This document shows positions 9,540 to 52,677 of a DNA stretch of 64,000 nt, piece after piece. This stretch comes from Anaerolineales bacterium. Its GTDB lineage: Bacteria > Chloroflexota > Anaerolineae > Anaerolineales > Villigracilaceae. The position numbers and the translations under genes were made by a program. The stretch covers positions 3,713 through 67,712 of the forward strand of contig DAOUAS010000019.1 of the NCBI GenBank assembly GCA_034433295.1. Reading direction: 5' to 3'. The first letter of the stretch is position 1; each line of letters starts with the position of its first letter. The notes beneath the pieces were generated by a model. The model was not told the DNA's origin. It saw nothing but the letters and a program-made list of their open reading frames with translations, and did not search any database.

Positions 9540-9595
9540 TCCTTCGACTACGCTCAGGACGAACCTTCATCCTTCCTCTTTCATCCTTCGTCCTT
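9540..9595. repeat. 24-bp dispersed repeat copy 2 plus ttcatcc-type low-complexity tail, directly upstream of the TIR gene
   Basis: tccttcgactacgctcaggacgaa followed by ccttcatccttcctctttcatccttcgtcctt. Anchored by codons of track ORF 9524. Confidence 0.8.
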
Positions 9596-10153
9596 ATGTC
9601 ACGACCTCTCCGCGTTTTCCTTTGCCATTCCTCCAAAGACAAAGCCGCCGTGCGCGAGTTGTATCAAAAATTGCGCGCCGAGGAATGGATTGACCCTTGG
9701 CTCGATGAAGAGAAGTCATTGCCAGAGCAGGATTGGCGCGAGGAAATCGAAAAAGCCGTTGAAATTGCGGATGTGGTGATTGTCCTCTTATCGAAACAAT
9801 CCGTCTCACAGGAGGGATTTGTCCAGCGCGAATTGAAACTTGCGCTGGATGTCGCAAACGAAAAACCAGAAATCACGATTTTTATCATCCCTCTGCGTTT
9901 GGACGATTGCCCCGCCCCCCGCCGCTTGCATGGTTGGCATTATGTGGACTATTTCCCTGAAAACCGAAAGCCTTGGGTCATAGAGCGCTTGATTGCCAGC
10001 TTGAAAGTGTGGGCTGAGACGCTTGGCATAACGACTGATACAAAGCAAGAACCAAAAAAGGCAGCGTCCGCCTCTACACAGGAAAAGAAAGCGCCCGAAG
10101 TCAAAGTTGCTCCGAGAAAGCCTTTTACTAGCTTACTTTTGCAAGAGGTCTAA
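9596..10153 (+). CDS. stand-alone TIR-domain protein
   Basis: RVFLCHSSKDKAAVRELYQKL...ADVVIVLLSKQSVSQEGFVQRELKLAL matches the TIR_2-type pattern, including the conserved Glu. ATG 9596 chosen because the upstream extension is repeat-encoded. Confidence 0.8.
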   Translation: MSRPLRVFLCHSSKDKAAVRELYQKLRAEEWIDPWLDEEKSLPEQDWREEIEKAVEIADVVIVLLSKQSVSQEGFVQRELKLALDVANEKPEITIFIIPLRLDDCPAPRRLHGWHYVDYFPENRKPWVIERLIASLKVWAETLGITTDTKQEPKKAASASTQEKKAPEVKVAPRKPFTSLLLQEV

Positions 10154-26979: not shown

Positions 26980-27927
26980 CTATTCATATGGACCGAACAC
27001 GTCCTTGGGTAATCCAGGCGCGCGAATCCAGGAAAGCCAGCCCGTTTTTCCGCTATGCGTTGGCACGGTTGGGACTTCAAACATAACCAGGATAAGACTG
27101 ACGCCAAGTCCAAATGCCCCCAGCCATTGAAACAAGGTCAAATTTTCGCCCAGCCAGATATGGCTGAACAGGATTGCAATCAGCAGTTCGGCAAGTCCGA
27201 GCAGGGCGGTTTGCATTCCGCCGATCTTCTTCACGCCGAGGAAAAGAGCAATGCGAGAAAACATGGTCACGAAGGTCAATCCTGCAATCGGCTGCCAGGG
27301 GATGTTGGCGGCAGGCCAGGCGCGGTCGAAGATCAGGTAGGCAGGGACAACAACAGCGCTCATCGCCAGCAATGTGTAAAGCGCAACTGTTGGCGCGGGG
27401 ACTTCAAAAAGCACGCGCTGATTGATGGGGAGATGCATGGCATAAAGCACCGAGGCTCCAATCATCATCAAAACCCCTGTTGTGTCCGCCGGATTGTTCG
27501 GAATGCTTGTGAGCAGCAGAACGGCAACCGTGGCCAACCCCACTCGAAAGAATGTCAGGCGGCTGGGGGGTTGGTGATCGAGAATGAGCCAGAGCGCTAC
27601 AAAGAAGGGGTAAAGAGAGTAAAGCAATTGCCCAATGCTGGCATCCAGTCTTTGCAGCGCAAGGTAATACAAAAGCGAACCCAGTCCGTTGATTGCGCCT
27701 GCCAGCCCGCAGCCGATTAACCCCACCGGAAATATATATAGATATTGGCGATAGAACAGAGCTACGACCAGAAAAAGAATGCCAGCCGCAAAGCCGGTAC
27801 GTAAAGCCACAACGGCAAAAGGCGTAAATCCCAGGGTGATGGCCAGTTTTCCGAAAACGGGAGCCAGACCGAGGAATACTGCGGAACTGAAGGCGGCCAA
27901 AATGCCGGCTGTATGTTTTTTTTTCAA
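26980..27927 (-). CDS. DMT-superfamily (EamA-like) transporter
   Basis: Ten hydrophobic helices in two repeated halves, typical of EamA. Confidence 0.75.
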   Translation of the reverse strand: MKKKHTAGILAAFSSAVFLGLAPVFGKLAITLGFTPFAVVALRTGFAAGILFLVVALFYRQYLYIFPVGLIGCGLAGAINGLGSLLYYLALQRLDASIGQLLYSLYPFFVALWLILDHQPPSRLTFFRVGLATVAVLLLTSIPNNPADTTGVLMMIGASVLYAMHLPINQRVLFEVPAPTVALYTLLAMSAVVVPAYLIFDRAWPAANIPWQPIAGLTFVTMFSRIALFLGVKKIGGMQTALLGLAELLIAILFSHIWLGENLTLFQWLGAFGLGVSLILVMFEVPTVPTHSGKTGWLSWIRAPGLPKDVFGPYE

Positions 27928-27968: not shown

Positions 27969-29624
27969 TTATTTTATTAATGCTTTTACTTCTTCCAGGA
28001 ATTCATCGTTGAGAAAATCACCCTTTTGCATCAGGGATTGAATCTGACCGCTCAGCCTGTTCTTTTCATCGGGCGTCAGTTCCTTGGCGGTTGCAACGAT
28101 TACAGGAATGGTGGCTGTCTCCTGCTTTGCGCGCAGGGCTTCAATCACCCCAAAACCATCCAGCTCGGGCATCATCAAATCCAGCACGACAAGGTCCGGT
28201 AATTCGCGCTGGATTAGATCGAGACCTTCGCGTCCGTTGGTGGCCTCCAAAATGGTGAAACTTCCCTGCGATTGCAAAATGCGGCGAATCAAGCGGCGGG
28301 CCTCTGCGGTATCCTCCACGATAGCGATCTTGGGGAAACGTTCCGGCGCGACCTGGCTCAGGGCCGAGAGCAGGCCTTCCTGCGGGGTTTGTTCGCTGGT
28401 CATCAATTTAACGTCGCGCGACCAGTTGTCACCAAGAACGCCAGCCTCCGCTGGCATGGTGTGACCCGTGCAATTCACCACCACAGTGTCACTGGGCTTG
28501 ATGATGCCGGCGCGAATCAGCTTGAAGAGCCCGGCAAAGGCCACGGCTGCGGCAGGTTCGGCGGAAATTCCCTCCATTTTTGCCAGAACGTGCATGGCGC
28601 GGAAGGCATCCTCGTCACTCACACTCTCGAAAGCGCCATTGGTGCTATTCACATAATCGCGTAAAAATTGGTAGGAACGGCCGGGGTCGCCGGTGGCAAG
28701 CGTTTCGATGCGGGTTTTGGGCGAGGTGACGGTCTCCGCCTTTTCCAATCCCTTCTTCCAACTGGTCACCATGGGGGCGCAGCCTTCCGCCTGGATGGGG
28801 GCGAACGCGGGAATGTTTTCGATCCAACCCATGCTTTTCATTTCGCGGAAACCCTTGTAAATGCCGATGGGTCCCATGCCGCCGCTGATGGCCTGCACGT
28901 ACCAGTCGGGTGTGATCCAGGGATAACCTGTGTTTTCTGTATCCTGGATGGCGGTCAGTTGTTCGGCAATTTCGAATGCAATGGTCTTCATCGCTTCGAT
29001 GGAGGTAATGGTGCGCGCCCCCATATCCTGATACAAATGGCGTTGTTGCGCGAACTCGGCCGCAACCTGTTTGCATTGATCGTAGGAACCTGTGATTTTG
29101 ATGACCTGGCTTCCATACAGCGCGATTTCGCGCATTTTCATGGCAGGCACTAGGCTGGTGACGAAGGCCCATAGTTTCATCCCCGCGCGGGATGCGTAGG
29201 CCGAATAGGAAATTGCAACGTTGCCAGTGGAAGCTGCCACCATCTCGGTGATGCCAGCCTCCTTCAGCGCGGCAATTGTCACCGCCGCCTGCCTGTCCTT
29301 GAATGAGGATGTCGGACCCTGACGCTCATCCTTGATGTAAATATTGGGACAGCCCAGCATCATGCCCAGATTTACTGCGCGGATGAGCGGAGTTCCGCCT
29401 TCGCCGAGCGACAGGCTTATGTTTGGATTGCGGACGGGCAACAATTCACGATAGCGCCAGAGATCGAAGGGGCGTGAAGCCAGTTTGGGAAGCAGGGTCT
29501 TTCCGATGATTTCATAATCGTATTCCGCTTCACGCCACTGACTGTTGCACTTGGGGCATGTGGTTGAAGTTGGGTAGTATGGCGCCAGATGCCCGCAATC
29601 GACGCACTTGATGAGAAAGGACAC
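27969..29624 (-). CDS. threonine-synthase-like PLP enzyme fused to a C-terminal receiver (REC) domain
   Basis: N-terminal Zn-ribbon (CVDCG...CPKC), PLP-lysine motif SSFKDRQAAV and a fold-type-II body. The last 125 aa or so are KIAIVEDTAEARRLI...LVVLDLMMPELDG...IPVIVATAK...MQKG, i.e. REC. Confidence 0.85.
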   Translation of the reverse strand: MSFLIKCVDCGHLAPYYPTSTTCPKCNSQWREAEYDYEIIGKTLLPKLASRPFDLWRYRELLPVRNPNISLSLGEGGTPLIRAVNLGMMLGCPNIYIKDERQGPTSSFKDRQAAVTIAALKEAGITEMVAASTGNVAISYSAYASRAGMKLWAFVTSLVPAMKMREIALYGSQVIKITGSYDQCKQVAAEFAQQRHLYQDMGARTITSIEAMKTIAFEIAEQLTAIQDTENTGYPWITPDWYVQAISGGMGPIGIYKGFREMKSMGWIENIPAFAPIQAEGCAPMVTSWKKGLEKAETVTSPKTRIETLATGDPGRSYQFLRDYVNSTNGAFESVSDEDAFRAMHVLAKMEGISAEPAAAVAFAGLFKLIRAGIIKPSDTVVVNCTGHTMPAEAGVLGDNWSRDVKLMTSEQTPQEGLLSALSQVAPERFPKIAIVEDTAEARRLIRRILQSQGSFTILEATNGREGLDLIQRELPDLVVLDLMMPELDGFGVIEALRAKQETATIPVIVATAKELTPDEKNRLSGQIQSLMQKGDFLNDEFLEEVKALIK

Positions 29625-29659: not shown

Positions 29660-32600
29660 TTATGTGCGAACTCGTTCGAGCGACCGCTGAATGGATGTAA
29701 GCAGTTCTTTTTCGTTGAAGGAGCCCTTCGACAATAGTCGTTGACCGAATTCGTTTAACTGCTGTTTTTGTTCGTTTGTAAGTTCCATGCCGCTAATGAC
29801 GATCACCGGAATGTCGCGCAGTTTTTCGGATGCTTGCATGTTTTCCAATATCTTGAAGCCGTCCATTTCGGGCATGAACAGATCCAGGATCACGGCATGG
29901 GGAGGTTTGCCCGACGAGATGATATCCCAACCCACGCGTCCGCCTTCCGCGAGTATGGGCTTGTATCTTCCGTCGTCGATCAGCATTTTGCCGAGCAGCC
30001 GCAGGTCATCGGGGTTATCGTCGATCACCAACACATCGCGGATCGAGCCGTCGGTGTTCAGGCGATCCAGGGCATTGACGAGGTCTTCCTCCAAAATGGG
30101 TTTGACCAGATAATCTGTCGCCCCAAGGTTGAATCCCTTTTCGAGTTCTTCGACGATACTGCAGATAATGACGGGAATGTTGCGCGTGTCGGGGTCGCCT
30201 TTCAGGTTGTCCAAAACCTGCCAGCCATCGATGTTTGGCATCATAATGTCCAACGTTACCGCAAAAGGTCTGAGTTCCTTGACGCGTTCCACCGCTTTTG
30301 AAGGATCGGTCAATGGGACCACCTGATACCCCTGCGGGTGTAAATAGCGTTCGTATAGTCCAATAACCTGCATATCATCATCGATTGCCAGCACCACTTT
30401 ATTGCTGCCATCGGTGATGCTTTCGTGTTCCTTGTGGAAAAGGGGCAGGGTAAAGTGGAACGTGCTTCCCCTTCCAATTTCGCTTTCGACCCATATCTTG
30501 CCACCATGCATGTTGACAATGTGCTGGCAGATCGACAATCCGAGGCCGGTGCCGCCGGTTTTGCGGGTGGGGGAATCGTCCACCTGTGAGAAGGGTTGGA
30601 AGAGCTTTGCCTGATCCGGCTCGGCAATACCCGGACCTGTATCGGTGACGCTCACGCGAACTTCGTTGTGTCCGCTGGTTCCAGGCTTCAGCCCAACTTC
30701 CACGCTGATGATGCCTTCATCGGTGAATTTGGCCGCGTTCGAAAGCAGGTTGATCATCACCTGGCGGATGCGAATGGCGTCGGCCCGCACTGTTGGCAGG
30801 TTGGGCTGAATCGTGCGCTGCAATTGAATGGGCTTGTCCTTGATGAGCCCGGTCATGGTGGAAAGGACGCTGTTGGTGATATCGGAGATGTTCACTTCGT
30901 CGAAAGCCAGTTCCATCTTGCCGGCTTCGATCTTGGAAAGGTCCAGCACATCGTTGATCAGACCAAGCAGGTGTTGTCCCGAATTGTAGATGGCTGTCAG
31001 GTCCTGTTGTTGTAATTCGGTGACGGGACCGTCGATGCCCTTGATGATTACGCGCGAGAAACCGATGATCGAGTTGAGGGGTGTGCGCAATTCGTGGCTC
31101 ATATTGGCCAGGAACTGGCTCTTCATGCGGTCGATTTCGCGCATTTCCATAACAGCCTGCTGTGACAGTTCGAAGGAGCGCGCATTGTCGATGGCCACCG
31201 CCACCTGGTCTGAAAGTGTTTGAAGCACGGCTATGTCGTCTTCGGTTAGTGCGCCGGCAGACTTGGATTGAATGTCGATTACCCCGATGATGCGGCTTCC
31301 GATCCGCAGGGGGAGCGCGGCTTCCGCCCGCGTTTCAGGCAGCAGGGGGTTGAATTTGTGCGTTGGGCTTGCCGTGACGTCGTTGACCACGACAGCCTGT
31401 CCATCCATGGCCACTTTGCCGACGATGGATTTGTCGTTGATCTGTAGCGTATGCTTCCTTTCCTTCATTTCCTTTCCGGCTTCGCCGGTCGCTTCGCGCA
31501 GGACGGCATTGAAGCCGGTTTCCTCGACGATGAAAATGCCCGCATGGTAGAAGCGGAAACGTTCATTGATCAGGTTTACGGTTCGGGCGAAGATCGTGTT
31601 CAAGTCCAGCGTGGATGTGACCAGCCTGCTGATTTCCGCGGACGCCGCAAGGTACTCATTGCGGCGTCTGATTGCCTCTTCGGACTTTTTACGCTCTGTA
31701 ATGTCACGCGCCACCCAGAAGACATTGTTGTCATCGAGTTTGGTGAGCTTTGCCAGAAACCAGAAGACCTCGTTTCCCACTTGCATGTCATACTCGATCT
31801 GGGTGGGCTCGTCGTTTTCCAATGTCCGTCTGATTGCTTCTAGAAATTTATCGGCTGTTTCCCCGGGAAGCACATCGTGGACCAATTTGCCCAGCAACTC
31901 TTCCGGAGGCTTGATTAAACGCGACGGGTTTGTGGGCGCAATGCGCACATACCGGCCATCGCGGTCATAGACCAATACGATGTCTTCCATTGCCGAGAAT
32001 AAGGCGCGCAGGTCCGCTTCGGATTTGGCAAGGGACTCCTCCGATTTCTTGCGCTCTGTAATATCCTGATGCACGGAAAGGAAACCAAGAACTTTTCCGT
32101 TCTCATCGAGGATTGGACTGTTCGTTCCTGCGATGAAGACAAGGCGACCGTCCTTTGCCTTGTTGACGATTTCACCTGTGACGGTTCCTCCGCTCAAAAG
32201 CCTGTCCCAGAAGTGTTTGTATTGCACCTCTGTGATAAGCCCGGATTTCAGGATGCGCGGAGTCTTCCCCAGCGCTTCTTCACTGGTGAAACCGTATATT
32301 TTCTCGAATCCCGGGTTGATATATTGGATGGCGCCGTTGGGGTCGGTGATGAATACTGCATTGTCGGTCCTGTCGATCCCAAGTTTGAATTTTTGAGCTT
32401 CCTGGAACAGGCGCGCGTTTTCCAGCGCCAGCGATAACTGGTCTGTGACCTGTTTTATAAGCAGTTCGTCTTCCGGAGTCCACTGTCGCTGTTCTTCGGT
32501 CAGGATGCGCAGCGTAGCCCAGTCCTGGTAGCCGCTCTGGATATTGACGGAAAAAGTGGTTGTGGCGCTGTCCTCGTTGCGCACAGGCAGGGATTCGGCA

Positions 32601-32827
32601 AAAACCATTGTGGCAATATCGCGTCCGGTTGTTTGCGGACTTGGCGCCACTTCGGGTTTTGCCGGAGCGGGAGCCGGCGGCTGATGGGGTGGGATACCCG
32701 CAGATTCGATGGACGATAGAACCTTCCTCTCCTTTTTGGAAGGTTCCGGTTTTGCCGCGCTCTCTTCAGGAGTAAGCCCTTTGAATAAATTGTCAATTCG
32801 CTTGTTTATTTTCGGTTTCTTTGACAT
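29660..32827 (-). CDS. hybrid sensor histidine kinase (half-GAF module - PAS - PAS - GAF - HisKA - HATPase_c - REC - REC)
   Basis: H-box MSHELRTPLNSIIG, G boxes DTGPGI and GTGLGLS, and two receivers (VLAIDDD...VTLDIMMPNIDG; VLVIDDN...VILDLFMPEMDG). The GAF has the cluster signature FRFYHAGIFIVEE...TRAEAALPL...IGVIDIQS. The N-terminal QWTPEDELLIKQVTDQLSLALENARLFQE matches the sensors' second module. Confidence 0.9.
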   Translation of the reverse strand: MSKKPKINKRIDNLFKGLTPEESAAKPEPSKKERKVLSSIESAGIPPHQPPAPAPAKPEVAPSPQTTGRDIATMVFAESLPVRNEDSATTTFSVNIQSGYQDWATLRILTEEQRQWTPEDELLIKQVTDQLSLALENARLFQEAQKFKLGIDRTDNAVFITDPNGAIQYINPGFEKIYGFTSEEALGKTPRILKSGLITEVQYKHFWDRLLSGGTVTGEIVNKAKDGRLVFIAGTNSPILDENGKVLGFLSVHQDITERKKSEESLAKSEADLRALFSAMEDIVLVYDRDGRYVRIAPTNPSRLIKPPEELLGKLVHDVLPGETADKFLEAIRRTLENDEPTQIEYDMQVGNEVFWFLAKLTKLDDNNVFWVARDITERKKSEEAIRRRNEYLAASAEISRLVTSTLDLNTIFARTVNLINERFRFYHAGIFIVEETGFNAVLREATGEAGKEMKERKHTLQINDKSIVGKVAMDGQAVVVNDVTASPTHKFNPLLPETRAEAALPLRIGSRIIGVIDIQSKSAGALTEDDIAVLQTLSDQVAVAIDNARSFELSQQAVMEMREIDRMKSQFLANMSHELRTPLNSIIGFSRVIIKGIDGPVTELQQQDLTAIYNSGQHLLGLINDVLDLSKIEAGKMELAFDEVNISDITNSVLSTMTGLIKDKPIQLQRTIQPNLPTVRADAIRIRQVMINLLSNAAKFTDEGIISVEVGLKPGTSGHNEVRVSVTDTGPGIAEPDQAKLFQPFSQVDDSPTRKTGGTGLGLSICQHIVNMHGGKIWVESEIGRGSTFHFTLPLFHKEHESITDGSNKVVLAIDDDMQVIGLYERYLHPQGYQVVPLTDPSKAVERVKELRPFAVTLDIMMPNIDGWQVLDNLKGDPDTRNIPVIICSIVEELEKGFNLGATDYLVKPILEEDLVNALDRLNTDGSIRDVLVIDDNPDDLRLLGKMLIDDGRYKPILAEGGRVGWDIISSGKPPHAVILDLFMPEMDGFKILENMQASEKLRDIPVIVISGMELTNEQKQQLNEFGQRLLSKGSFNEKELLTSIQRSLERVRT

Positions 32828-33581
32828 ATTCCATTAACTCCTGGGCGAGCACGTGATATTGCGTTGTGCCTCGCGCGGCGGGTTTGTAGCGGGAGATCGG
32901 CAATCCTGCAATCGAACTTTCGCGCAGTTTTGTGTCCATTTCGATCACCGTGCTGAATACGCCTTCGCCAAATGTCGAACGAAGCTGCTCATGGATGTTG
33001 CGGTGCGTGCGGTTCCTGTTATCGAGCATTGTAACGAGAATGCGATATGCAAGGTTGGGATTGTCGTCTTCGCGAATGCGGCGTACGAGATTCATCATGT
33101 TGCGAAGAGCGTAGGCGGAGAAATACTCGGCCTGCGTGGGGATGAGCAGAAGGTCTGCCGACGCAAGGGCGTTTTGTGTAATTGCGCCAAGGGAGGGGGG
33201 GCAATCGAGCAAAACATAGTCGTACGGCAGGTTGGGCGTTCCGGCGATGGCTCGCTTGAGGATGGTGGTGTAATTTGTTCGCACGGGCAGGAATTGCTCG
33301 CATGTTTCGATCCGCAGGCTGGACGAAATCAGGTCCAGGTTTTCGACTTCCGTCCTTCGGCGCACATTCAGCAGCGGGACGTTGTCAAGAAGTATGTTGC
33401 TGGATGTGCTTTCGGACTCTCCCGGCTCGAACCCGAGAGCCAGCGTCAGGTTGGCTTGCGCATCCAGGTCGATAAGGAGGACACGACAGCCCAGTTCGCC
33501 AAGCGCGGCTCCCAGTGAGATGGTGGTTGTGGTCTTTGCAACGCCGCCTTTTTCATTGGATACTGCAATTGTTTTGGTCAT
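32793..33581 (-). CDS. ParA/MinD-family ATPase (orphan; no ParB nearby)
   Basis: Deviant Walker A KTIAVSNEKGGVAKTT and Walker B YVLLDCPP. Overlaps the kinase start by 35 nt. Confidence 0.88.
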   Translation of the reverse strand: MTKTIAVSNEKGGVAKTTTTISLGAALGELGCRVLLIDLDAQANLTLALGFEPGESESTSSNILLDNVPLLNVRRRTEVENLDLISSSLRIETCEQFLPVRTNYTTILKRAIAGTPNLPYDYVLLDCPPSLGAITQNALASADLLLIPTQAEYFSAYALRNMMNLVRRIREDDNPNLAYRILVTMLDNRNRTHRNIHEQLRSTFGEGVFSTVIEMDTKLRESSIAGLPISRYKPAARGTTQYHVLAQELMEYVKETENKQAN

Positions 33582-33598: not shown

Positions 33599-35845
33599 TT
33601 AATCGTCTTCCGATGGTGATACGCCTTTTTGCGGGATGATTTCAACGCGCGTGACGCCCAAAGCGCGCTTTAGTTCCTCAACCGCCGTCCTCACCATTTC
33701 CTGCGGGTCATTGGTACTGCGGATCTTGGTGGTGATGTCTGTTACGAGACGTTCACGCGAGGCGCGCGCGGATGTTTCCTCGAAAAGCCGGGCGTTATCC
33801 AACGCAAGACCGAGGCGTTCTGCGACCGCCCGCACGATATTGACTTCATCGGTTCTCCAATGCCTGCCCCCGGTGATGGGACGGATATCGAGGGTTCCGA
33901 TTGTCTGATTGCGCAATTTGATCGGGACAGTCAATGCGCCGTTTTCATTTGCATCCGGAAGTTCGTCCCTGGCTTTGTTTGCGGTGATGACCTGTCCGCC
34001 GGTCAGGGTTTGATGATAGCCAACAATGCCGGAGGCAGACTTCTTTTGCCACGAATCGGCAAGATATTCCCGGAAGATGGATTGCGATTCTGCGAGAGCC
34101 TCCTGAGCCTCCTGCAATAGGCGGACATTGTCAATGGAGATGGCGATTTGGTCTGCCAGCAGACTGAGGGTGGAGATATCCGTGTCGGTGAAGGCGTTTG
34201 GAACAGTGCTTTGCACGTCCAATGCGCCGATGATCTTGCCGCGCGCGGTGAGCGGCAGGGCCATTTCAGCGTGTGTGTCGGGCAGATCGGGGTTGTTGAA
34301 AAACACAGCATCTGAACCGGTATCCAGCGCAATGCGGGGGACACCGGTTGCAGTCACCATGCCTACGATGCCGACCTGTCCGACTTCGAGTTTGTGTTGT
34401 CTGTCCAGCATCTTTTGTCCGCCGGGACTGTTCGCCGCGCGCAGGATAGCATAGTTACCACTTTCGTTGAGAAGGAAGATGCCAACGTGATAGAACCCGA
34501 AACGTTCGCTCACAGCTCGTGTAACAAGAGGAAGGAGGAGTTCCAAGTCCTTTTCTGTCGAAAGGTATTGACCGATTTCTGCAATTGTCCGCAGGTCTCT
34601 GGCGCGTTTTTCGCTTTCCTTCGAAGTCTGTTCGAGTTCGGCGCTGCGATGTTCCAATTCCAAAGTGCGCTGTGCCACCCGGTCTTCCAACTCCGTCACC
34701 AGGTTTTGCAGTTGCCCAGCCATGCTGTTGAACGAATTGGTGAGCAGACCCACCTCATCCTTGGATGGGTTGGACACGCGCTGAGAGTAATCTCCGCTTG
34801 CCATTTTGTCGGCTGCTTCCTGGAGCCTGTGGATGGGCCTGGAAATTTGGTAAGTGGCGAACAAGGCCAATATGACATTGCCGATTATTGCGAAGAAGGC
34901 AAATACGCCGCGTTGATCGGAGATGAGTTGATCCTTTACCACTAACAGATCGCCCAGGTTAACAGCGATGCCGACCACGGCCCGGGTATCTGCGCCGATG
35001 GTAACTGGAGTCAAACCCAGGGCGTGGGGGGCGCCTCCCGGCGTCGTGAACAATTCCCCGGCAACGACCACTTGCCCATTCAAAGCCTGTTCGATGGATT
35101 TTGGCTCCAGCATGTAGGAGGAAAAATACGTCAATCCCGTGGCATCCTCGAAATCGGTGGCAACGATCTCCCCATCGATAATCAACGCCAGGTCGAGGCT
35201 GTGACCGGAAATGACGTTGATCTTCGAAAGCATCTTGTCATCCATCAGGCGGCTGCCGATGACCGCGCCGATCACCTTGCCGGAATTATCATGGACCGGG
35301 GTGGCGACCGAAATGTAGATTTGTTGTGGTTCGTCTCCCATGACAATGCCGCTGGCATTGAAACCCAGCAACGCCAGTTCGAGCAGACGATCTTCTCCGG
35401 CGGAGTTTTCTTCGGATACATCGAACAGCCGCCTGCCCTGGGCGTTTACTGTGTCTACGTCGTCGAAGTCGAGACGGGCGGCTGCAATCAACAGATCGGA
35501 TTGAACGGGCTTGATGTTCCCCCTTGTCAGCGCGTCCAACAACCCCGGAGTGTTGGAGAGCGCCACAGCATTATTGAGCATTTCCCGTTCGATTTCTTCG
35601 AAGCGGATCCGAATGATCTGCGCTTCCTGTTCGACATTTCGACGCCCGGCTTGGATCATGAAGCTATTCATGCCGATATTGGTTGCCAGAACCATTCCAA
35701 GCAACAGGAAACTGAATATCACGAAGACCAGAATGTTCAGCCTCGCGCCCAGTGTTGTTTTCTTGATGAGTTCCAAAAGCCGCATCAGTCTCTGCTCCTT
35801 TGCAGTCATCCAGACTTCGTCAGGACGGCTGCAAAATACGATCAA
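33599..35845 (-). CDS. membrane sensor paralog 1 (TM - extracytoplasmic domain - TM - HAMP - S-helix - GAF - half-GAF - tail), no output domain
   Basis: HAMP SRPIHRLQEAADKMASGDY...DEVGLLTNSFNSMAGQL, S-helix LEDRVAQRTLELE, GAF FGFYHVGIFLLNE...THAEMALPL...IGALDVQS. The start may instead be an internal Met. Confidence 0.85.
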   Translation of the reverse strand: MIVFCSRPDEVWMTAKEQRLMRLLELIKKTTLGARLNILVFVIFSFLLLGMVLATNIGMNSFMIQAGRRNVEQEAQIIRIRFEEIEREMLNNAVALSNTPGLLDALTRGNIKPVQSDLLIAAARLDFDDVDTVNAQGRRLFDVSEENSAGEDRLLELALLGFNASGIVMGDEPQQIYISVATPVHDNSGKVIGAVIGSRLMDDKMLSKINVISGHSLDLALIIDGEIVATDFEDATGLTYFSSYMLEPKSIEQALNGQVVVAGELFTTPGGAPHALGLTPVTIGADTRAVVGIAVNLGDLLVVKDQLISDQRGVFAFFAIIGNVILALFATYQISRPIHRLQEAADKMASGDYSQRVSNPSKDEVGLLTNSFNSMAGQLQNLVTELEDRVAQRTLELEHRSAELEQTSKESEKRARDLRTIAEIGQYLSTEKDLELLLPLVTRAVSERFGFYHVGIFLLNESGNYAILRAANSPGGQKMLDRQHKLEVGQVGIVGMVTATGVPRIALDTGSDAVFFNNPDLPDTHAEMALPLTARGKIIGALDVQSTVPNAFTDTDISTLSLLADQIAISIDNVRLLQEAQEALAESQSIFREYLADSWQKKSASGIVGYHQTLTGGQVITANKARDELPDANENGALTVPIKLRNQTIGTLDIRPITGGRHWRTDEVNIVRAVAERLGLALDNARLFEETSARASRERLVTDITTKIRSTNDPQEMVRTAVEELKRALGVTRVEIIPQKGVSPSEDD

Positions 35846-35846
35846 T

Positions 35847-36683
35847 TTACGGGGTTGGGATGAACCCGAGCGCCTTTAATTCAGCCTGTCCTTCATCGGA
35901 GGACAACCAGTCGATCAGCGGTTTGATTTCGCTTTCATGTTCCGCCAGATAGCCGATGCCGGCCGAGCCGAGGATGGGGTAGGATGCATTATTTGGCAGA
36001 ATGCCGTTGATGGCAATCGTTTCCACTTCCGCATTTTCGGCCAGCACAGGCGGCAGGGCGGCAATCCCAACCGCTCCCCTTGTGCCTTCCACTGAGAAGA
36101 TCATATCCGACTGGCTGAAGAGAGTTTTGGCTGTTTCAGAAAGGGCTGTTTCGCCTATCATGGCTTTTCGCAATCCCTTTGTGCTTGAGTCGTCCTCATC
36201 GCGCACATACAGGACAAGATCAAGGTTTGCCCCCCCTACCTGGGACCAGTTTGTGACCTTACCCGAAAAGATTTCAGTGATCTGACGTTTGTTCAGACTT
36301 GAAACGCCGGTTACAGAGGGATGAACGATAATCGATTGCCCAATCAGACCCATTTCGTAGTATTTGATGTTTTTGGCGATTTCTTCATCCTTGGGTGGGC
36401 GCGCCATTGCCGCCGCATCCAGCAAACCTTCGAGGATGCCGGTAACGCCGCTGCCGGTGCTGTTGCCGGACATGACTTCGAGTTTATAGCCGGGGGTTGC
36501 CCGTTCAAATGCGGGCGTCAGAACTTCGAGTACGCTTGTAATCGTTCCCGAGCCCGATATCTTCAATACCACCAGCCGGGAGGGCGTTGGGGTTGGCGGT
36601 TGCGAAGAGAAGCCCGCGCACGAGGTTGAGAATAGCGCGCCGGTCAATATCAGAAAAATAAAACGTATATAACGGTTTTTCAT
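35847..36683 (-). CDS. PstS-like (PBP_like_2) periplasmic substrate-binding lipoprotein, orphan
   Basis: Lipobox LFSTSC plus LKISGSGTI and NSTGSGVTG motifs of the phosphate-binding-protein fold. No ABC permease or ATPase anywhere in the window. Confidence 0.75.
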   Translation of the reverse strand: MKNRYIRFIFLILTGALFSTSCAGFSSQPPTPTPSRLVVLKISGSGTITSVLEVLTPAFERATPGYKLEVMSGNSTGSGVTGILEGLLDAAAMARPPKDEEIAKNIKYYEMGLIGQSIIVHPSVTGVSSLNKRQITEIFSGKVTNWSQVGGANLDLVLYVRDEDDSSTKGLRKAMIGETALSETAKTLFSQSDMIFSVEGTRGAVGIAALPPVLAENAEVETIAINGILPNNASYPILGSAGIGYLAEHESEIKPLIDWLSSDEGQAELKALGFIPTP

Positions 36684-39148
36684 TCCAAATCCTTCACGTT
36701 CGTTGCTTGCAGGTTGATGTAAATATCCGCATCATGTAGCAGGTGGCTTAATTCGTTTGCAGTGGTCCGGAGAATGTTTTCGGTGCGGAAAGAAGCGGAA
36801 ATTTTCGAAGCAATATCTGAAATGGCGCGTTCCATTTCGGCGCGCCGGGATGTTTCATCGAAGAGGCGGGCGTTTTCAGCGGCAAGCGCCACCCGCTCCG
36901 CAACGATCTTGATCAAATCGACCCGGTCCTGGCTGACAGGTTCATCCTTTGGAAGTTGAACGGATAGCGAGCCTATTGTCTCTCCTCGCACGATAATGGG
37001 GATGTTGATATCCGAGGCTGTGCCAGTATTCCCCACATCCTCATTTGCCTGCAGGGGAACGGCGCCGGAGACGGAATATCGATACCCGCCAAGTTGTTCC
37101 TCCCTTGTCAACCGTCCCCAGGTTTCACGAACATATTGACGTTGAATGACCTCGAACTCCAGGATCGCCTTTTGCGCCTGGTCGAAGAGACGCGCGTTTT
37201 GAATGGCAAGGCTTACCTGGTCTGCCAGCGCTGATAGGGTTTTGAAGTCTTCGTCGGTGAACGCGCCGACCTCGGTGCTTTGAATATCAAGGGCGCCGAC
37301 AACCTGGTTGCCGGCTTTGAGCGGCAGCGCCATTTCGGAGTGGGTGAAGGGAAGTTCAGGGTTGGTGAAATAGATCGCGTCCTCGCCGACATCGAGCGCA
37401 ATGCGCGGTTTGCCGGTTTGCGTCACATATCCGACGATGCCTTGCTCCCCGATTTTCAACTGGTGTCCGCGGGCGAGCATTTTCATGCCACCTTCGCTGT
37501 TGGCCGCACTAAGGACGGCGTACAGGTCGTTCTTGTCGTTCAGGAAAATTCCCACATGATAAAAACCGAAGTTTTCGCTGATTGTCCTCGAGATTTGAGG
37601 CAGGAGAACCTCGAGGTTGTGGGTGGCGTTGATAACGCGGGCTACGTTGGTGATGGCTTCGAATTGTTTTCCTCTGCGGACACCTTTTTCAAGCGCGTCC
37701 TGCAGTTCTGATGTGCGCTCGGACACCCTTTGTTCAAGCGTGTTGACCGAGCCTTTGATGGCGTCGGTCATTATGTTCAGTGTTTCTGCCAGGATTCCGA
37801 TTTCATCCCGGTTTTTGATCTCCGCTTTTGCGTTGTAATTTCCTCTGCCGATTTCGCCGGCAATGCCTGTCAGGGATTTCAGCGGGGCGGTCAATCGGTT
37901 TCCAATGACAAGCGTCGAAACGGATGCCATGGACAGGATCAACGCCACGAGCAAAACGCTGGTGGTGATGATATTTCTTGTTTCCTGAAGAATCTGGGCT
38001 TTGACTGTGGTTGATTCGAGCAGCAACTCTTCGGACGGCACTGTGATGATCAGGCTGTATCCAAGCGTCGGAATTTGCTGATACGCCACGAATCTCTCGA
38101 CCCCGTTTACATTCACCGGGATCACAATATCGCTGCCGAGGGAGCGTTGTTCCAGTACCTGCCGAAAATCCCCGGAAACTTTTTCCAATTTTGTTTGGTC
38201 TAATATTTCTCCCAGAGACGCCGTTTCTGGCGTGAAGCCAAAATCGCCGTAACCGGCTTCGGGCAGGGCGATCAAGCGGTTCTCGCTGTCGATCAGGAAG
38301 GCGTATCCTGTTTCTCCAATCTTGATCTCGGAAACCAGGCTTGTGATTCTCTCCAGTTGAATATCCATGGCCGAAACGCCCTGAAATTTTCCGCCGCCGT
38401 CGAAGACCGGTACGCTGGCTGTTATCACCAGCCCGTTCAGCGCCGCATCCTGATAGGGCGCGGACCATACCACACTTTGATCGGGGTTTTGCCCCGGCGA
38501 TGCCGCAACATACCAGGGGCGTCCGGTTACATCGAAGTCTGCCGGCACGATATTTGCTAGGTCGATGTTGGGGAAGTAGATGGTTTCCTTGAACGTCCCC
38601 CCGAAATAGACAGCGATGATGTCGGGGTTGTCCTTGAGAATGGAAGGCACGATCAACTCGGTTTGCTTTATCACATTTAGTCTAGAGGTAAATTCATCCG
38701 TAAGTTCGGCGCCGGCGGGTATGAAAACCGAGGCGGTCTCCGAATTCGGATTATCCCATGCCCCGGCGGGTGTTTGGACAAGGGCTTCCTTTGCATTCCA
38801 ATAGATTCCGCTATTCAACCTGGATTCCCCGGCGAACATTTGTTTTTCCGTTTTGCCCAACATGGAAATGTAATCCCTCATCGACTCGAAAAAGACATTA
38901 AGGATTGCGGCCTGTTCCCGGCTGGTGGTCTGGAGTTTCTCCTCTGCCTTGTTGCGAACGCTCGATTCGAGCTGGGCGGTCAGGACTGCGTTTGATTCCT
39001 GCGTGCGAAAATAAACGTAATAACCCATGCCCACAATGGACGCAAAGGTGATCAGTAGGTTGCCCAGGATCAGTTTGGCGCGCAAGTTCATGCGGCTGAA
39101 GGGCATTTTTCGGGTGTTTCCAGGTTTAGACGAACGAAGCATGCTCAT
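36680..39148 (-). CDS. membrane sensor paralog 2 (TM - dCache - TM - HAMP - S-helix - GAF - half-GAF - tail)
   Basis: dCache_1-like GRPWYVAA...LVITASVPVFD..GKFQGVSAMDI...GETGYAFLIDSENRLIA, HAMP RDEIGILAETLNIMTDAI, S-helix LEQRVSERTSELQ, GAF FGFYHVGIFLNDK. Confidence 0.88.
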   Translation of the reverse strand: MSMLRSSKPGNTRKMPFSRMNLRAKLILGNLLITFASIVGMGYYVYFRTQESNAVLTAQLESSVRNKAEEKLQTTSREQAAILNVFFESMRDYISMLGKTEKQMFAGESRLNSGIYWNAKEALVQTPAGAWDNPNSETASVFIPAGAELTDEFTSRLNVIKQTELIVPSILKDNPDIIAVYFGGTFKETIYFPNIDLANIVPADFDVTGRPWYVAASPGQNPDQSVVWSAPYQDAALNGLVITASVPVFDGGGKFQGVSAMDIQLERITSLVSEIKIGETGYAFLIDSENRLIALPEAGYGDFGFTPETASLGEILDQTKLEKVSGDFRQVLEQRSLGSDIVIPVNVNGVERFVAYQQIPTLGYSLIITVPSEELLLESTTVKAQILQETRNIITTSVLLVALILSMASVSTLVIGNRLTAPLKSLTGIAGEIGRGNYNAKAEIKNRDEIGILAETLNIMTDAIKGSVNTLEQRVSERTSELQDALEKGVRRGKQFEAITNVARVINATHNLEVLLPQISRTISENFGFYHVGIFLNDKNDLYAVLSAANSEGGMKMLARGHQLKIGEQGIVGYVTQTGKPRIALDVGEDAIYFTNPELPFTHSEMALPLKAGNQVVGALDIQSTEVGAFTDEDFKTLSALADQVSLAIQNARLFDQAQKAILEFEVIQRQYVRETWGRLTREEQLGGYRYSVSGAVPLQANEDVGNTGTASDINIPIIVRGETIGSLSVQLPKDEPVSQDRVDLIKIVAERVALAAENARLFDETSRRAEMERAISDIASKISASFRTENILRTTANELSHLLHDADIYINLQATNVKDLE

Positions 39149-41982
39149 CCCTGCGATTCCTTACTTTCATTGCTGTTCTTTAGTTGAAGGACAACATTCG
39201 ACCCGGGCATAATGCGTCCCAACTCCTCCACCGCTGTTCGCAATACATTTTTGAGATTGGCGGCTTCGCTGATCTTGCCTGTAATATCGCCGAGGGTTTG
39301 TTCCCTGGCGGCTTGACGCTGGGCCTCTTCGATCAGGCGGGCGTTATCCAGGGCAATTGAAAGGCGCTCACATACTGTTTCAGCGAGATTGATTTCGTCG
39401 GCGGACCATTCGCGATTTTTAATCGGCGCCTTGATATTAATGCTTCCGATAACCTGCCCACGGAGTTTAATGGGCAGGACAATGGAGGCTTCCTGGGTGA
39501 TGCCGTCTGCGTGGAAAATCAAGACTTCACCGCGTTTCATGGTCTGTTCAATTTCATCTGATTTAACCGCCCTGGTTATTTTTTGTCCGCTGGTTATATT
39601 TTGACGGTAGCCGACAAAACCCTTTTGTCGGCTGAATACCTTCCAGCCCTCCTGGATGTTTTGGCGGTAAAGCGCCTGTGCTTCATTCAAAGCCTGCTGT
39701 GTCTGAGCAAAGAGCCGGGCATTTTCCAGCGCAATTGCGATCTGGTCTGCAAGAATACCGAGAGTGCTGGCGTCGTTTTCGGTGAACGCTCCCGCCCTTT
39801 TACTTTGCACGTCAAGCACGCCCACCAGACTATCCCTTACTTTAAGCGGCAGGGCTATTTCCGAGCGTGTTTCTGGCAGGTCGGGATTGTTAAAGTAAAC
39901 TGCATCCTGTCCAACATCGAGCGAAATGCGTGGGTAACCGGATCGGGCAACGTATCCGACGATGCTGTTTTCGCCAAGTTCGAGTTTGTGTCCGCGCTTC
40001 AGCATGTTTTGTCCGCCCGCGCTATTTGAGGCTTGCAGTACTGCATATTGATTCGAATTGTCGACCAGGAAGATGCCGACATGGTAGAAATCAAATCGTT
40101 CGCTCACCAGGCGGGTAATCAGCGGCAACAGGTTCTCGAGTTTTTGTTCGCTGGTGATGATCTTTGAAATCTCGCCAATGGATTGGAGTTCGTTTGCCCT
40201 CCTGATGCTTTGCTGGCGCGAGAGTTCCAGGTCGGCTGTGCGCTCCGCCACGCGTTGTTCCAGCCCGGTTAGTGTCTGGCTCAATTGGCGGGTCATGCGA
40301 TTGAATGTGTCGGCCAAAATGCCGATTTCATCTTTGGTGTTTACTTCGGCTTGCGCATTTAAATCTCCCGAAGTAATTTTTTCAGCGACTTTGGTAAGAA
40401 TACCAAGCGGGGATGTCAGGATTTGCGAAGCCACAAACCCGGCAAGAATGCCGAAGACGACCAGCAGCATCGAAGTGAGCGTATTGGTTTTGTTCTGCTC
40501 CCTGATCGAGGCAAGGTAAGTTTCGGTGGGCTGTTGAACCAGGACAGCCCATGGAAGGTTTTTTAGGAAAACGCCGGCATTGATGGCTTCGGACTGGTGT
40601 AATTCCGAGTAGCTGTAAAAGAATGGCTCCTGTGCAAGATTGTCCATTCCGGCAACAATTGCATCATCTGTTGCCATGATCGCATTTGCCGGAAGCCGCC
40701 CATCTGATTGCAGAGCCACAAATTCTACTTCGCTGAAATCCCTGTATGTTTTGAAGAGGTTATCGCGCTCGCCTGTGTAACCGGTCCGCAGATAGGTGTT
40801 TACGTCGACAACCGATATGATTGTGTCATTTCCGCCCGTATCCAGCGAACGGACAATGGATTGGATGATGGTCCCATAATACTCGATTCTCAACACACCG
40901 ATGGTCTCCCCGTCGAGATTTTTGATTGGCGCGCTAAAGTATATGCTTGGCTTTTTCCCGCGAAATGTGATGTTGGACACATAAGGCAGACCGCTCTTCA
41001 TCGGCCGGGTGAAGTGGGTGAACATGGATTCATCCCTGCCCGTGTAGTCTTCGAAGGTGTCCAGGACATCCATCCCGTTTGAATCCAGGACGGCGATCGA
41101 GCGAATGAAGACCGGGTTCTTGCGCGACAGGAACAGCAAGGCCTGGCTTGCGTTTTTTTCCTCGCCGGGCTGGGACGGAGGCTCAAGATATTCGATCAGC
41201 GAAATTTGCTTTGCGTCTGCGTGTATGGCATCCGTTTGGGCGTTGATGAAATCATCGAGCGTGTCCGCCGCAATGTTTGCGAGTGCGGATAATTGTGCTT
41301 CGCTTTGCCTTTGCAGCGCCGCCGTCGAATACCGGCTGTTAATGACGCTCAGCGCGATGAGCGGAACGATTGTGATGAGAATGAAGGCGATGACAATCTT
41401 GGTCTGGAGGGTGTATGACCTGAAGTTCCTTAGGATAAAGAAGGCATACACAACGGATATTGCCCCGGCTAGGATATTTGTGTAAGTGGGGTCGTTGGGC
41501 AGGCTGGCGCGGGGTAGATATAGGTCGACCAAAATGACAAGGACAGTAATGATGAATGCGCTGACGATTGCGCGCCTTGCCAGCATAGGAGGAAGTGCAA
41601 TGGAGGAAATGCCGGATACAAGGACGAGGATGATAATGGCAAGCCCAAGCCCCTGTCCATAGGCAAGGAAAGGCAGCATACAGGATAAAATCAAAAGTGC
41701 CGCAATTAATATGCCGATGCCCTGTGTGGCGCGCCCGCGTGAAACTTGCAGGGCGCTTGTGAATGCCGCCGCAGATGCAATTCCTGTTATTAGAATTCCC
41801 CACAAGCCGGCCAGCCCATTTTCATAATAGGCAACCGGGGTCAGGATCACGGTGATCACCAGGAATAAAACGCCGGTGATCAGGCTGATCACTAATGCGT
41901 TTTTCCTGCGGGCTTCCTCTTCTGATGATGCGGGCGGGCGATTGGCTGGGTAATCCATATAGGTTCTCGTCTTGTTTGGCAA
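39145..41982 (-). CDS. membrane sensor paralog 3 (about 6 TM - extracytoplasmic domain - TM - HAMP - S-helix - GAF - half-GAF - tail)
   Basis: Long polytopic N-terminus, HAMP SPLGILTKVAEKITSGDLN...KDEIGILADTFNRMTRQL, S-helix LEQRVAERTADLE, GAF FDFYHVGIFLVDN. Confidence 0.88.
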   Translation of the reverse strand: MPNKTRTYMDYPANRPPASSEEEARRKNALVISLITGVLFLVITVILTPVAYYENGLAGLWGILITGIASAAAFTSALQVSRGRATQGIGILIAALLILSCMLPFLAYGQGLGLAIIILVLVSGISSIALPPMLARRAIVSAFIITVLVILVDLYLPRASLPNDPTYTNILAGAISVVYAFFILRNFRSYTLQTKIVIAFILITIVPLIALSVINSRYSTAALQRQSEAQLSALANIAADTLDDFINAQTDAIHADAKQISLIEYLEPPSQPGEEKNASQALLFLSRKNPVFIRSIAVLDSNGMDVLDTFEDYTGRDESMFTHFTRPMKSGLPYVSNITFRGKKPSIYFSAPIKNLDGETIGVLRIEYYGTIIQSIVRSLDTGGNDTIISVVDVNTYLRTGYTGERDNLFKTYRDFSEVEFVALQSDGRLPANAIMATDDAIVAGMDNLAQEPFFYSYSELHQSEAINAGVFLKNLPWAVLVQQPTETYLASIREQNKTNTLTSMLLVVFGILAGFVASQILTSPLGILTKVAEKITSGDLNAQAEVNTKDEIGILADTFNRMTRQLSQTLTGLEQRVAERTADLELSRQQSIRRANELQSIGEISKIITSEQKLENLLPLITRLVSERFDFYHVGIFLVDNSNQYAVLQASNSAGGQNMLKRGHKLELGENSIVGYVARSGYPRISLDVGQDAVYFNNPDLPETRSEIALPLKVRDSLVGVLDVQSKRAGAFTENDASTLGILADQIAIALENARLFAQTQQALNEAQALYRQNIQEGWKVFSRQKGFVGYRQNITSGQKITRAVKSDEIEQTMKRGEVLIFHADGITQEASIVLPIKLRGQVIGSINIKAPIKNREWSADEINLAETVCERLSIALDNARLIEEAQRQAAREQTLGDITGKISEAANLKNVLRTAVEELGRIMPGSNVVLQLKNSNESKESQG

Positions 41983-41984
41983 GT

Positions 41985-42953
41985 TTAGGGCAGATAGGAT
42001 GGGTTGAGCAGTTCGAGCGGGTCGATCAATTGGGTGGTCGTGCCGATCGAAATAAGATAGTCGGATGTCATCTGCGTAACCGAGTAAATGGAATTTGTCC
42101 CTTCGATATCGAATAATTCCCTGTTTTCCTCTGCAGTGTAAAGCCTCTGATTATCATCGGGTTGTATTTCATCGGCGCTTACCCCAAGATATTTGGCGGC
42201 AATTTCGCGGGTTTCTCCCTGGTGTTGCATTCGGTACTCCACGGCTTGAAACCATGCTTTGAGGAAGGCGCGGATGTCCTCCGGCCTTTCATCCACAACC
42301 GCCTTGCTGAAAACGATCGTATCCGGAAAGAGGCGCATTTTTTGATTTGGGTAGATGATCCTGTTCCCATCTGCAATTGCCTTGGATAGGTGCGGCTCCC
42401 ATGTGTATACCGCCTGTACGCGTCCGCTCTTCAGCGCCTCCGAAGCGTCTTCCGGGTTGACGTTTACGATGGTTACATCGCTGACGCTCATTAAACCGCT
42501 CTTCAACATTTGAGACACCATTAGTTCGTATTGTGTTCCAAGGAGGACGCCGATAACCTTCCCATTTAAATCCTGGATCGAAGCAATCTCCGGGCTTGCG
42601 ACGATCGAGTCCGCGCCCCCATCGTCATTAAGCCCGACAACTTTCATCGGATAGGTATGGTGAATATTGATAACATCACCAACTGCAATCAACGCCCCGT
42701 CAATTTGCCCTGAGGCAAGGTCAGGGTAGATCTCTGGATAGACATCGTAATATACCGGTTCGACTTCGACCCCATACTTCTCGAAAAAACCTTTCTCCTT
42801 GGCTACCAGGAGCGTGTAATCGCCCCACCACTGCGTATATTCCACCCGGAGCGGTGGATTTGCGCGTTCTTCAGCCTGAAGCGGCGCGCATGAAGTGGGA
42901 ATGGTTGTCATTAAAACTGTAAGTAGGACGGTGTTAAAAAATTTTTTTTTCAT
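41985..42953 (-). CDS. NMT1/SsuA-like periplasmic substrate-binding lipoprotein, orphan
   Basis: Signal peptide with Cys (TIPTSCAP) and an overall pattern like nitrate/sulfonate/bicarbonate-type binding proteins (WWGDYTLLVAKEKGFFEKYGVEVE...). No transporter partner genes. Confidence 0.7.
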   Translation of the reverse strand: MKKKFFNTVLLTVLMTTIPTSCAPLQAEERANPPLRVEYTQWWGDYTLLVAKEKGFFEKYGVEVEPVYYDVYPEIYPDLASGQIDGALIAVGDVINIHHTYPMKVVGLNDDGGADSIVASPEIASIQDLNGKVIGVLLGTQYELMVSQMLKSGLMSVSDVTIVNVNPEDASEALKSGRVQAVYTWEPHLSKAIADGNRIIYPNQKMRLFPDTIVFSKAVVDERPEDIRAFLKAWFQAVEYRMQHQGETREIAAKYLGVSADEIQPDDNQRLYTAEENRELFDIEGTNSIYSVTQMTSDYLISIGTTTQLIDPLELLNPSYLP

Positions 42954-42967
42954 CGGTTTCGCTTGTA

Positions 42968-44908: not shown

Positions 44909-44941
44909 TGATACTCCTTTGAAAATCCTTGCGGGGGAAAT

Positions 44942-46660: not shown

Positions 46661-46718
46661 ACGGACAACCTGTCCAAATTTTGGTGTACTTTCTCTTTAA
46701 AGATATTGTATAGCATGT

Positions 46719-49064: not shown

Positions 49065-49069
49065 AATAC

Positions 49070-52641: not shown

Positions 52642-52677
52642 AAAACGCCTCTTTGTCTTCTATCGTTCATCTTGAAA

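Follow-up and report, generated by a model that had tools for sequence, protein, structure and literature searches.

Nearly all of the two-component outputs that have been studied are transcription factors, cyclic di-GMP (c-di-GMP) enzymes and chemotaxis proteins, and receivers control the activity of CheB or PleD. Among fold-type-II pyridoxal phosphate (PLP) enzymes, IlvA and cystathionine beta-synthase (CBS) are controlled by C-terminal allosteric domains. Receivers fused to ordinary metabolic enzymes form a recognised class (Galperin et al. 2018, PMC5847659). A wing domain derived from a receiver is also known from PLP decarboxylases; in these LdcI-type enzymes it is described as an oligomerisation module, with no mention of its phosphorylation (PMC8503589). 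Here we describe a gene located on the minus strand of a 64,000-nucleotide stretch (the window) of contig DAOUAS010000019.1 from an Anaerolineales bacterium, which encodes an enzyme related to threonine synthase (ThrC) fused to a C-terminal receiver. This architecture is conserved, its PLP-binding and phospho-acceptor residues are intact, the substrate-phosphate site of ThrC has been lost, and the gene is linked to those of a sensor histidine kinase and of an EamA permease.

The fusion resembles CheB, PleD/WspR and RpfG in that a receiver is joined to a catalytic domain and accompanied by a cognate kinase, and a phosphorylation-dependent logic would be expected of it as of them. Regulators of the CheB/PleD type have an N-terminal receiver and a C-terminal output, whereas in the fusion the enzyme comes first. 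The layout of a PLP catalytic domain followed by a regulatory module is that of IlvA and CBS, but their regulator senses a metabolite and that of the fusion would sense phosphorylation. The fusion likewise falls into Galperin's class of receivers joined to metabolic enzymes, among which we did not find a PLP output listed (PMC5847659). LdcI/CadA, AdiA and SpeF combine a PLP amino-acid enzyme, a CheY-like domain and a dedicated transporter, as the fusion locus does; they are of fold type I and carry the domain at the N-terminus, whereas the fusion is of fold type II with a C-terminal receiver, and unlike these winged decarboxylases it has an intact phospho-acceptor set and an adjoining kinase. 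No description of a ThrC-like or other PLP enzyme of this fold with a bona fide receiver was found in the literature searched, many subscription papers lying outside it. An earlier examination of the DNA from its letters alone (the sequence-only reading) named no described example. This stands for the pair of domains, but the principle of a receiver on a metabolic enzyme is known (PMC5847659, PMC8503589). Because these receiver-enzyme and PLP-wing precedents exist, the principle is not new; the output domain is.

The gene and its parts are located as follows, with the evidence for each in brackets.

27969..29624, minus strand: fusion gene, 551 amino acids (aa), zinc ribbon, ThrC-like PLP domain, connector and receiver (open reading frame (ORF), Pfam, conserved architecture)
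29541..29612, minus strand: four-cysteine zinc ribbon, residues 5-28, C7, C10, C23 and C26 (cysteines conserved in fused orthologues; ribbon also in zinc-ribbon ThrCs)
28464..29411, minus strand: fold-type-II PLP catalytic domain, Pfam PALP, residues 72-387 (Pfam, AlphaFold2 (AF2), Foldseek, motifs)
29298-29300, minus strand: PLP lysine K109 in SFKDRQA
28983-29027, minus strand: rebuilt substrate loop, residues 200-214
28332..28463, minus strand: connector, residues 388-431 (orthologue alignment)
27972..28331, minus strand: C-terminal receiver, residues 432-551 (Pfam, match to solved receivers)
28179-28181, minus strand: codon of the phospho-acceptor D482
27969-27971, minus strand: stop codon of the fusion gene

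The reading frame is unbroken, with a GTG start and an AGGAG sequence 11 nucleotides (nt) upstream of it. Both domains were recognised by Pfam far above the curated cut-offs, a comparison that the sequence-only reading had proposed: PALP over residues 72-387 (218 bits, E=2.1e-64, cut-off 35) and Response_reg over residues 433-534 (67.8 bits, E=1.2e-18, cut-off 30.2). Among PDB sequences, residues 51-391 align to threonine synthases, the best being M. tuberculosis 2D1F (E=6e-42). An AF2 model built from a 56-sequence alignment has a mean predicted local distance difference test score (pLDDT) of 80.9 and a predicted template modelling (TM) score (pTM) of 0.68. The pLDDT is about 80-95 in the PLP domain and 80-94 in the receiver core; confidence is low for the last helix and for residues 390-420 (pLDDT <50). 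We compared the model with the PDB using Foldseek. ThrC structures rank first, with TM scores normalised to the target of 0.80-0.83 (0.83 for the M. tuberculosis and B. subtilis enzymes), followed by the cysteate synthase CapA2 and then by serine dehydratases and TrpB. A receiver occurs in none of the 50 matches listed, all of which are PLP enzymes.

The sequence-only reading had seen a threonine synthase of archaeal type, or a related fold-type-II PLP enzyme, behind an N-terminal CxxC...CxxC ribbon. The PALP match and the recovered ThrC fold agree with this fold type and with descent from ThrC. The complete receiver that it placed at about 27969-28350 is found at 27972-28331. All the strings that it quoted are present, namely the four cysteines C7/C10/C23/C26, SSFKDRQ (K109), IVED (E437/D438), VATAK (T512), QKG (K534) and the phospho-acceptor string VVLDLMMPELDG, which contains D482 (VVLD482LMMPELDG).

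We then looked at how widely the fusion occurs. More than 120 different 90%-identity clusters of about 550 aa came up in a first homology search, all with PALP and Response_reg and drawn from NCBI, JGI, ENA and Logan assemblies; those with a name are Anaerolineales or Chloroflexi metagenome-assembled genomes. A scan of one genome per GTDB species gave full-length matches in about 45 Anaerolineae species, down to 52% identity, including Anaerolineales, Villigracilaceae, Promineifilaceae/Leptofilum and Bellilinea. When the closest unfused relative served as the query, another large clade of fusions emerged, with a length of about 548 aa and about 51-54% identity to the window protein; its members come from Aggregatilineales, Phototrophicales and other Anaerolineae. 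A third form (P0122 and P0123, 708-715 aa) carries two tandem C-terminal receivers. In an exhaustive search of representatives, six full-length 50%-identity clusters carry the fusion. Hundreds of independently assembled orthologues, belonging to three clades or more and reaching down to about 47% identity, keep this architecture. The fusion is a real, widely conserved Chloroflexota gene, and the family is large, comprising hundreds of sequence clusters. The sequence-only reading had named two outcomes that would speak against it, a C-terminal region that fails to score as a receiver and a frameshift that joins two genes. The receiver scores well, and the same architecture in hundreds of independent assemblies excludes such a join. 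We thus rejected the idea that a frameshift or misassembly had joined a thrC-like gene to a separate receiver gene: given the uninterrupted frame, these assemblies and a conserved connector of fixed length, its probability is negligible.

Residue conservation was assessed in an alignment of 47 fused orthologues, to which the percentages below refer unless stated otherwise. All four zinc-ribbon cysteines and the stretch S-F-K109-D-R-Q-A are 100% conserved. The other motifs of the PLP domain are S132-T-G-N135 (98-100%), the glycine loop Q244...S247-G-G-x-G-P-x-G254 (about 100%), G281-C282-A-P-M (C282 98%), T311-G-D-P-G-x-x-Y318 (85-100%, with T311, P314 and G315 at 100% and D313 at 85%), E356-P-A (98-100%) and N384-C-[TS]-G-H-T389 (96-100%). 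In the receiver, E/D437, D438, T/S512 and K534 are at least 98% conserved and D482 is invariant. Judged from this alignment, both halves of the protein are under strong purifying selection.

The receiver residues 432-550 align to residues 4-120 of the 122-aa solved receivers 4ja2/3dge (E=2e-20), so that single-domain receivers of the T. maritima RR468 type match it end to end among PDB sequences. The CheY quintet D12, D13, D57, T87 and K109 corresponds to E437, D438, D482, T512 and K534 and is complete, and the AF2 secondary structure follows the expected (beta-alpha)5 alternation. K534 is followed by a glycine and not by the usual proline, a K-G pair that is common to the second receiver of the neighbouring hybrid kinase. 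By these residues the receiver looks phosphorylatable. The connector has a fixed length of 42-46 aa across two clades that are only about 51% identical, and harbors the motif P-x-E-x-x-[IV]-L-G-D and the fusion-specific motif P414-E-E-G-L-L-S-A-L-x-Q424. Among 52 fused proteins from the two clades, P414 and L397/G398 are conserved at 100% and G417/A421 at 96%. On this alignment the connector is not a loose tether.

The PLP domain shares the fold of canonical ThrCs, to which it is about 27-32% identical; solved structures come from T. thermophilus (1UIM/1V7C), M. tuberculosis (2D1F), B. subtilis (6CGQ) and A. aeolicus (2ZSJ). They have in common with the fusion the SFKDR context of the lysine, the STGN loop and the EPA and TGH motifs, and ThrCs of the PRK08197 type carry the same N-terminal zinc ribbon. 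The GNAGN loop of canonical ThrCs is SGGxGP in the fusion, and only the fusion has a receiver. K61 of T. thermophilus ThrC aligns to K109. T88, N154, S155, R160 and N188 of the same enzyme, located in the motifs ASTGNT, NSVNPxR and GNAGN, are what we take to be the phosphate site for O-phosphohomoserine; they reportedly hold the phosphate of substrate or product (Omi et al. 2003 and Murakawa et al. 2011 are said to describe this). T88 and N188 are invariant in five solved ThrCs (1uim, 2d1f, 2zsj, 6cgq and the plant enzyme 1e5x), and N154, S155 and R160 in all four solved ThrC chains aligned over the loop. In the fusion, V136, G202, A203, S208 and G249/M250 stand in their place. The replacement loop D-x-G-A-[RK]-x5-E-x-M-K-T is itself conserved, with G202 and R/K204 at 98% and E210, M212, K213 and T214 at 100%, which argues for a changed substrate site and not for decay. 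Since the Asn/Ser/Arg phosphate cradle is lost, O-phosphohomoserine is disfavoured as the substrate.

Curated protein models agree with this picture. The window protein scores 160.8 with TIGR00260 (cut-off 167.1), 261.6 with PRK08197 (cut-off 303) and 200.9 with PRK05638 (cut-off 421), in each case below the cut-off. Canonical zinc-ribbon ThrCs with the full signature (P0254, P0262 and P0267, originating from Parcubacteria or metagenomes) reach about 336 with TIGR00260 and 297-321 with PRK08197. Fused orthologues score 144-188 with TIGR00260; P0293, from the second clade, reaches 187.6 (and 295.1 with PRK08197). JGI and NCBI name some of them threonine synthase, and the mixed naming at NCBI ('threonine synthase' or 'pyridoxal-phosphate dependent enzyme') arises because the orthologues straddle the TIGR00260 cut-off. 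When 58 ThrC-like sequences were placed in a neighbour-joining tree, every fusion and a small number of unfused proteins fell into a separate SFKDRQA/SGGxGP clade, and the PDB ThrCs formed a clade of their own with P0254, P0262 and P0267. From these alignments, scores and tree, the enzyme is derived from ThrC but unlikely to have threonine synthase activity, so that this part of the sequence-only reading is not upheld: five phosphate-site residues are replaced, the curated ThrC models are not passed, and the clade is a separate one. Cysteate synthase was considered and rejected (TIGR03844 score 116.3 against a cut-off of 324.9; the PDB cysteate synthase 9k3c matches at E=7e-8 only). This enzyme (CapA2, 9K3C) is, like the fusion, derived from ThrC with a changed reaction and is the next-best structural match (TMq 0.58), but it is without a receiver.

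The closest unfused proteins nest among the fusions, and those with a name are cyanobacterial: Planktothrix tepida A0A1J1LK38 (P0404), P. mougeotii and Pseudanabaena PCC 6802. They carry the subfamily motifs, and their loci lack the kinase and EamA. The contexts of unfused members that we examined contain no common partner pointing to a chemistry, and some members adjoin an amino-acid symporter and a binding protein. According to Kim et al. 2025 (PMC12172450), P. tepida PCC 9214 encodes three proteins of the ThrC type. The first is close to an enzyme assayed from Microcystis, ThrC2 is canonical, and ThrC3 shares only 34.5% similarity with that Microcystis enzyme. The nearest relatives of P0404 are a few small clusters at 73-75% identity, followed by Chloroflexota fusions at 59-66%; Microcystis, Nostoc and Synechococcus proteins are absent among them, and for this reason P0404 would correspond to ThrC3. 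We infer that this genome, the one complete genome with information, has a canonical ThrC in addition to the subfamily member. The Microcystis aeruginosa enzyme, of a 'unique lineage', is likewise a non-canonical paralogue beside a canonical ThrC and has both threonine synthase and deaminase activity, so that paralogues can shift activity (PMC12172450). It belongs to a different subfamily from the fusion, and its membership in the present one was rejected, P0404 having no close Microcystis or Nostoc relatives.

Two further observations concern the wider group of relatives. In locus L088 (2091-4989), a distant unfused member (P0133, 46% identity) is followed in the same orientation, with gaps of 0-42 nt, by genes for a radical-SAM/SPASM enzyme, a TauE-family exporter and a Fe-dependent alcohol dehydrogenase, and is preceded at 14 nt by a 619-aa ORF without a Pfam match; the set may be a small biosynthetic cluster. 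Other zinc-ribbon ThrC-like proteins (P0204, P0223, P0207, P0266 and P0253) are fused to PadR, LeuA allosteric or inositol-monophosphatase domains, the first two at the C-terminus and the last at the N-terminus. C-terminal LeuA allosteric and PadR modules thus recur in the same enzyme group as the fusion, and the PALP-PadR fusion is possibly a PLP-based transcription factor.

The fusion gene is the second-last of a long minus-strand string made of sensors, a ParA/MinD-like ATPase, a hybrid kinase, the fusion itself and an EamA permease. The neighbours are located as follows.

26980..27927, minus strand: EamA/DMT permease, 315 aa (Pfam EamA E=6.6e-24)
29660..32827, minus strand: hybrid histidine kinase, 1055 aa, PAS-PAS-GAF-HisKA-HATPase-REC-REC (Pfam, synteny)
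32793..33581, minus strand: ParA/MinD-like ATPase between the sensor string and the kinase (Pfam AAA_31 E=1.5e-47)
33599..59850, minus strand: 11 Cache/HAMP/MASE11-GAF sensor proteins without a kinase domain, and two periplasmic binding proteins (Pfam, shared C-terminal module)

The kinase gene stops 35 nt before the fusion gene, and EamA starts 41 nt after it. No minus-strand terminator-like site was detected in either gap, and the promoter and terminator scan remained at chance level. The order kinase-fusion-EamA is kept across about 40 species, and in about half of the related loci a convergent OmpR-type regulator, a REC-kinase and a GAF-kinase follow. With one exception, the gene directly upstream of the fusion encodes a HisKA-HATPase core in all loci examined; in L087, the exception, a REC-kinase lies directly downstream. 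EamA follows the fusion in 37 of the 39 genome loci with enough downstream sequence, and also in L083 and L087. Such a conserved gene order fits the proposal of the sequence-only reading that the fusion is the output of the sensor system. The locus types are these.

Window clade, L001-L045: hybrid kinase, fusion, EamA; EamA present
L032, L036, L038, L039 and L083: kinase-containing sensor, fusion, REC-kinase; EamA present in L038, L039 and L083, absent in L036; the contig of L032 ends before that position
L087: fusion, REC-kinase, EamA, with no sensor or kinase gene upstream; EamA present
L085 (10001-13000): kinase-containing sensor, two-receiver fusion, two stand-alone receivers, GNAT acetyltransferase; EamA absent

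Of the five local receivers, the hybrid kinase's second one is most similar to that of the fusion (35% identity over 116 aa, E=4e-23). The permease is of the general DMT type; it matched the carboxylate/amino acid/amine transporter model TIGR00950 weakly and nothing in the PDB. Since the ParA/MinD-like ATPase keeps its place upstream in most related loci, it may organise or localise the sensor array. The sensor string presumably provides inputs to the hybrid kinase.

The sensors have features of their own. Eleven consecutive proteins (33599-59850, minus strand) contain no kinase, cyclase or other known output domain. In ten of the 11, the C-terminus is formed by a module of about 155-200 aa that is homologous between them (27-47% identity, E=1e-16 to 1e-42), contains '...LALENARLFEE..RAxxER....ILxTAxxEL...' and resembles one half of a GAF domain followed by a helix and by the beginning of a second GAF; a giant sensor of 1284 aa carries only the last 66 aa or so of it. 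Residues 66-149 of the hybrid kinase match part of this module. In the dCache_1 sensor at 36680-39148 (minus strand), residues 205-213 read FDVTGRPWY, a partial match to Y-x4-R-x-W-Y, the reported amino-acid-binding motif of dCache_1 sensors. The motif is absent from the other Cache proteins of the string, and the match is a weak hint that amino acids may be among the sensor inputs.

We consider it on balance probable that the fusion is a kinase-controlled PLP enzyme acting on an amino-acid-like compound that is moved by the permease. Because the pocket inherited from threonine synthase has been rebuilt, the substrate would most likely be a different, amino-acid-like one. The upstream sensor histidine kinase would most likely phosphorylate Asp482, this phosphorylation would most likely switch the activity of the PLP domain allosterically, and EamA would probably bring the substrate in or carry the product out. 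Several observations weigh against this proposal. The receiver is C-terminal, the reverse of typical response regulators, and the AF2 model contains no confident domain-domain interface (linker pLDDT <50, pTM 0.68), which leaves the allosteric route without structural support. Pfam detected no Hpt domain in the hybrid kinase, which itself carries two receivers, so that the path of phosphate to D482 is not straightforward. In the locus of the two-receiver relatives (P0122), stand-alone receivers follow and there is no EamA; multi-receiver loci of this kind look more like a phosphorelay or a phosphate-sink network. As regards the substrate, the tree is a neighbour-joining one without bootstrap support values, and a canonical thrC was not found, a tblastn search with T. 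thermophilus ThrC over the locus flanks and the window matching only fusion genes. The rebuilt loop also keeps a basic residue at R/K204, which together with the frequent R316 leaves room for a phosphorylated or other anionic group on the substrate.

Part of this evidence would suit a real, or second, threonine synthase, whose receiver would put threonine synthesis under two-component control, as the sequence-only reading taken literally implies. The best sequence and structure matches are all ThrC, the PLP-binding residues are intact, some orthologues such as P0293 lie just above the TIGR00260 cut-off and bear the database name, and the EamA family includes threonine/homoserine exporters such as RhtA. 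A divergent cyanobacterial ThrC lineage, moreover, still makes threonine in vitro (PMC12172450). That assayed Microcystis enzyme is, however, outside this subfamily, whose member in Planktothrix accompanies a canonical ThrC as a third paralogue. The five substrate-phosphate-site residues are all replaced by residues that are themselves conserved, the TIGR00260 score is less than half that of canonical zinc-ribbon ThrCs, and the clade is separate. The scan of the 64-kb window, which covered ORFs of 200 aa or more, revealed no hom or thrB, nor any other amino-acid-metabolism gene. Taken together, these points make a genuine threonine synthase rather improbable.

The PLP domain might instead be mainly a ligand sensor that binds an amino acid as external aldimine and gates the receiver phosphate, the protein being a metabolite-gated sink or connector in a multi-receiver relay. 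PLP-fold domains do sense in the MocR/GabR regulators, and in the PadR fusions of other zinc-ribbon ThrC-like proteins the PLP domain can only sense. A C-terminal receiver is the arrangement of hybrid kinases, some relatives have two receivers and two stand-alone receivers beside them (the P0122 locus) or are followed by a REC-kinase, and the kinase has two receivers with no Hpt detected. We nevertheless regard this as fairly unlikely: the catalytic lysine is invariant, as are all the PLP-binding motifs (although MocR also keeps the lysine), stand-alone unfused enzymes exist in the same subfamily, and a substrate or product would account for the permease linkage (37/39 loci) more readily than a signal would. 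Still less probable is a receiver that serves for oligomerisation without signalling, like the wing domain of LdcI, AdiA and SpeF. These enzymes are a precedent for a PLP enzyme with a receiver-derived domain and a transporter, and need the wing for their decamers or dodecamers (PMC8503589), but the fusion receiver scores well above the Pfam cut-off, the conservation of its five phosphorylation-site residues across clades is 98% or higher, and a kinase gene adjoins the fusion in every locus examined.

A kinase-controlled PLP enzyme coupled to a permease, if confirmed, would provide a fast, transcription-independent link from environmental sensing to amino-acid chemistry. More tentatively, and with a rather low probability in our view, the kinase, the PLP enzyme and an EamA exporter would form a signal-to-secretion device in which a new reaction has evolved on the ThrC scaffold. 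Filamentous Chloroflexota would then respond to a stimulus by making and exporting a small compound derived from an amino acid, which might be an intercellular signal, a detoxified product or an amino acid of D- or non-protein type, and the output of a two-component system would be a secreted metabolite and not gene expression. The Anaerolineae, which abound in wastewater, sediments and soils, are difficult to culture and have received little study. The database label 'threonine synthase' probably misleads their metabolic reconstructions, and a systematic mis-annotation in Anaerolineae genomes is likely.

Elsewhere in the window, a stand-alone TIR-domain protein of 209 aa (TIR_2, E=7e-25) is encoded at 9524-10153 (plus strand) among housekeeping and sugar-nucleotide genes. 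The region 3263-6257 (plus strand), which encodes two large polytopic membrane proteins without a Pfam match, has a strong negative GC/AT skew (GC skew -0.31 at 4001-6000); this is no anomaly, because the coding sequence is rich in Leu and Phe.

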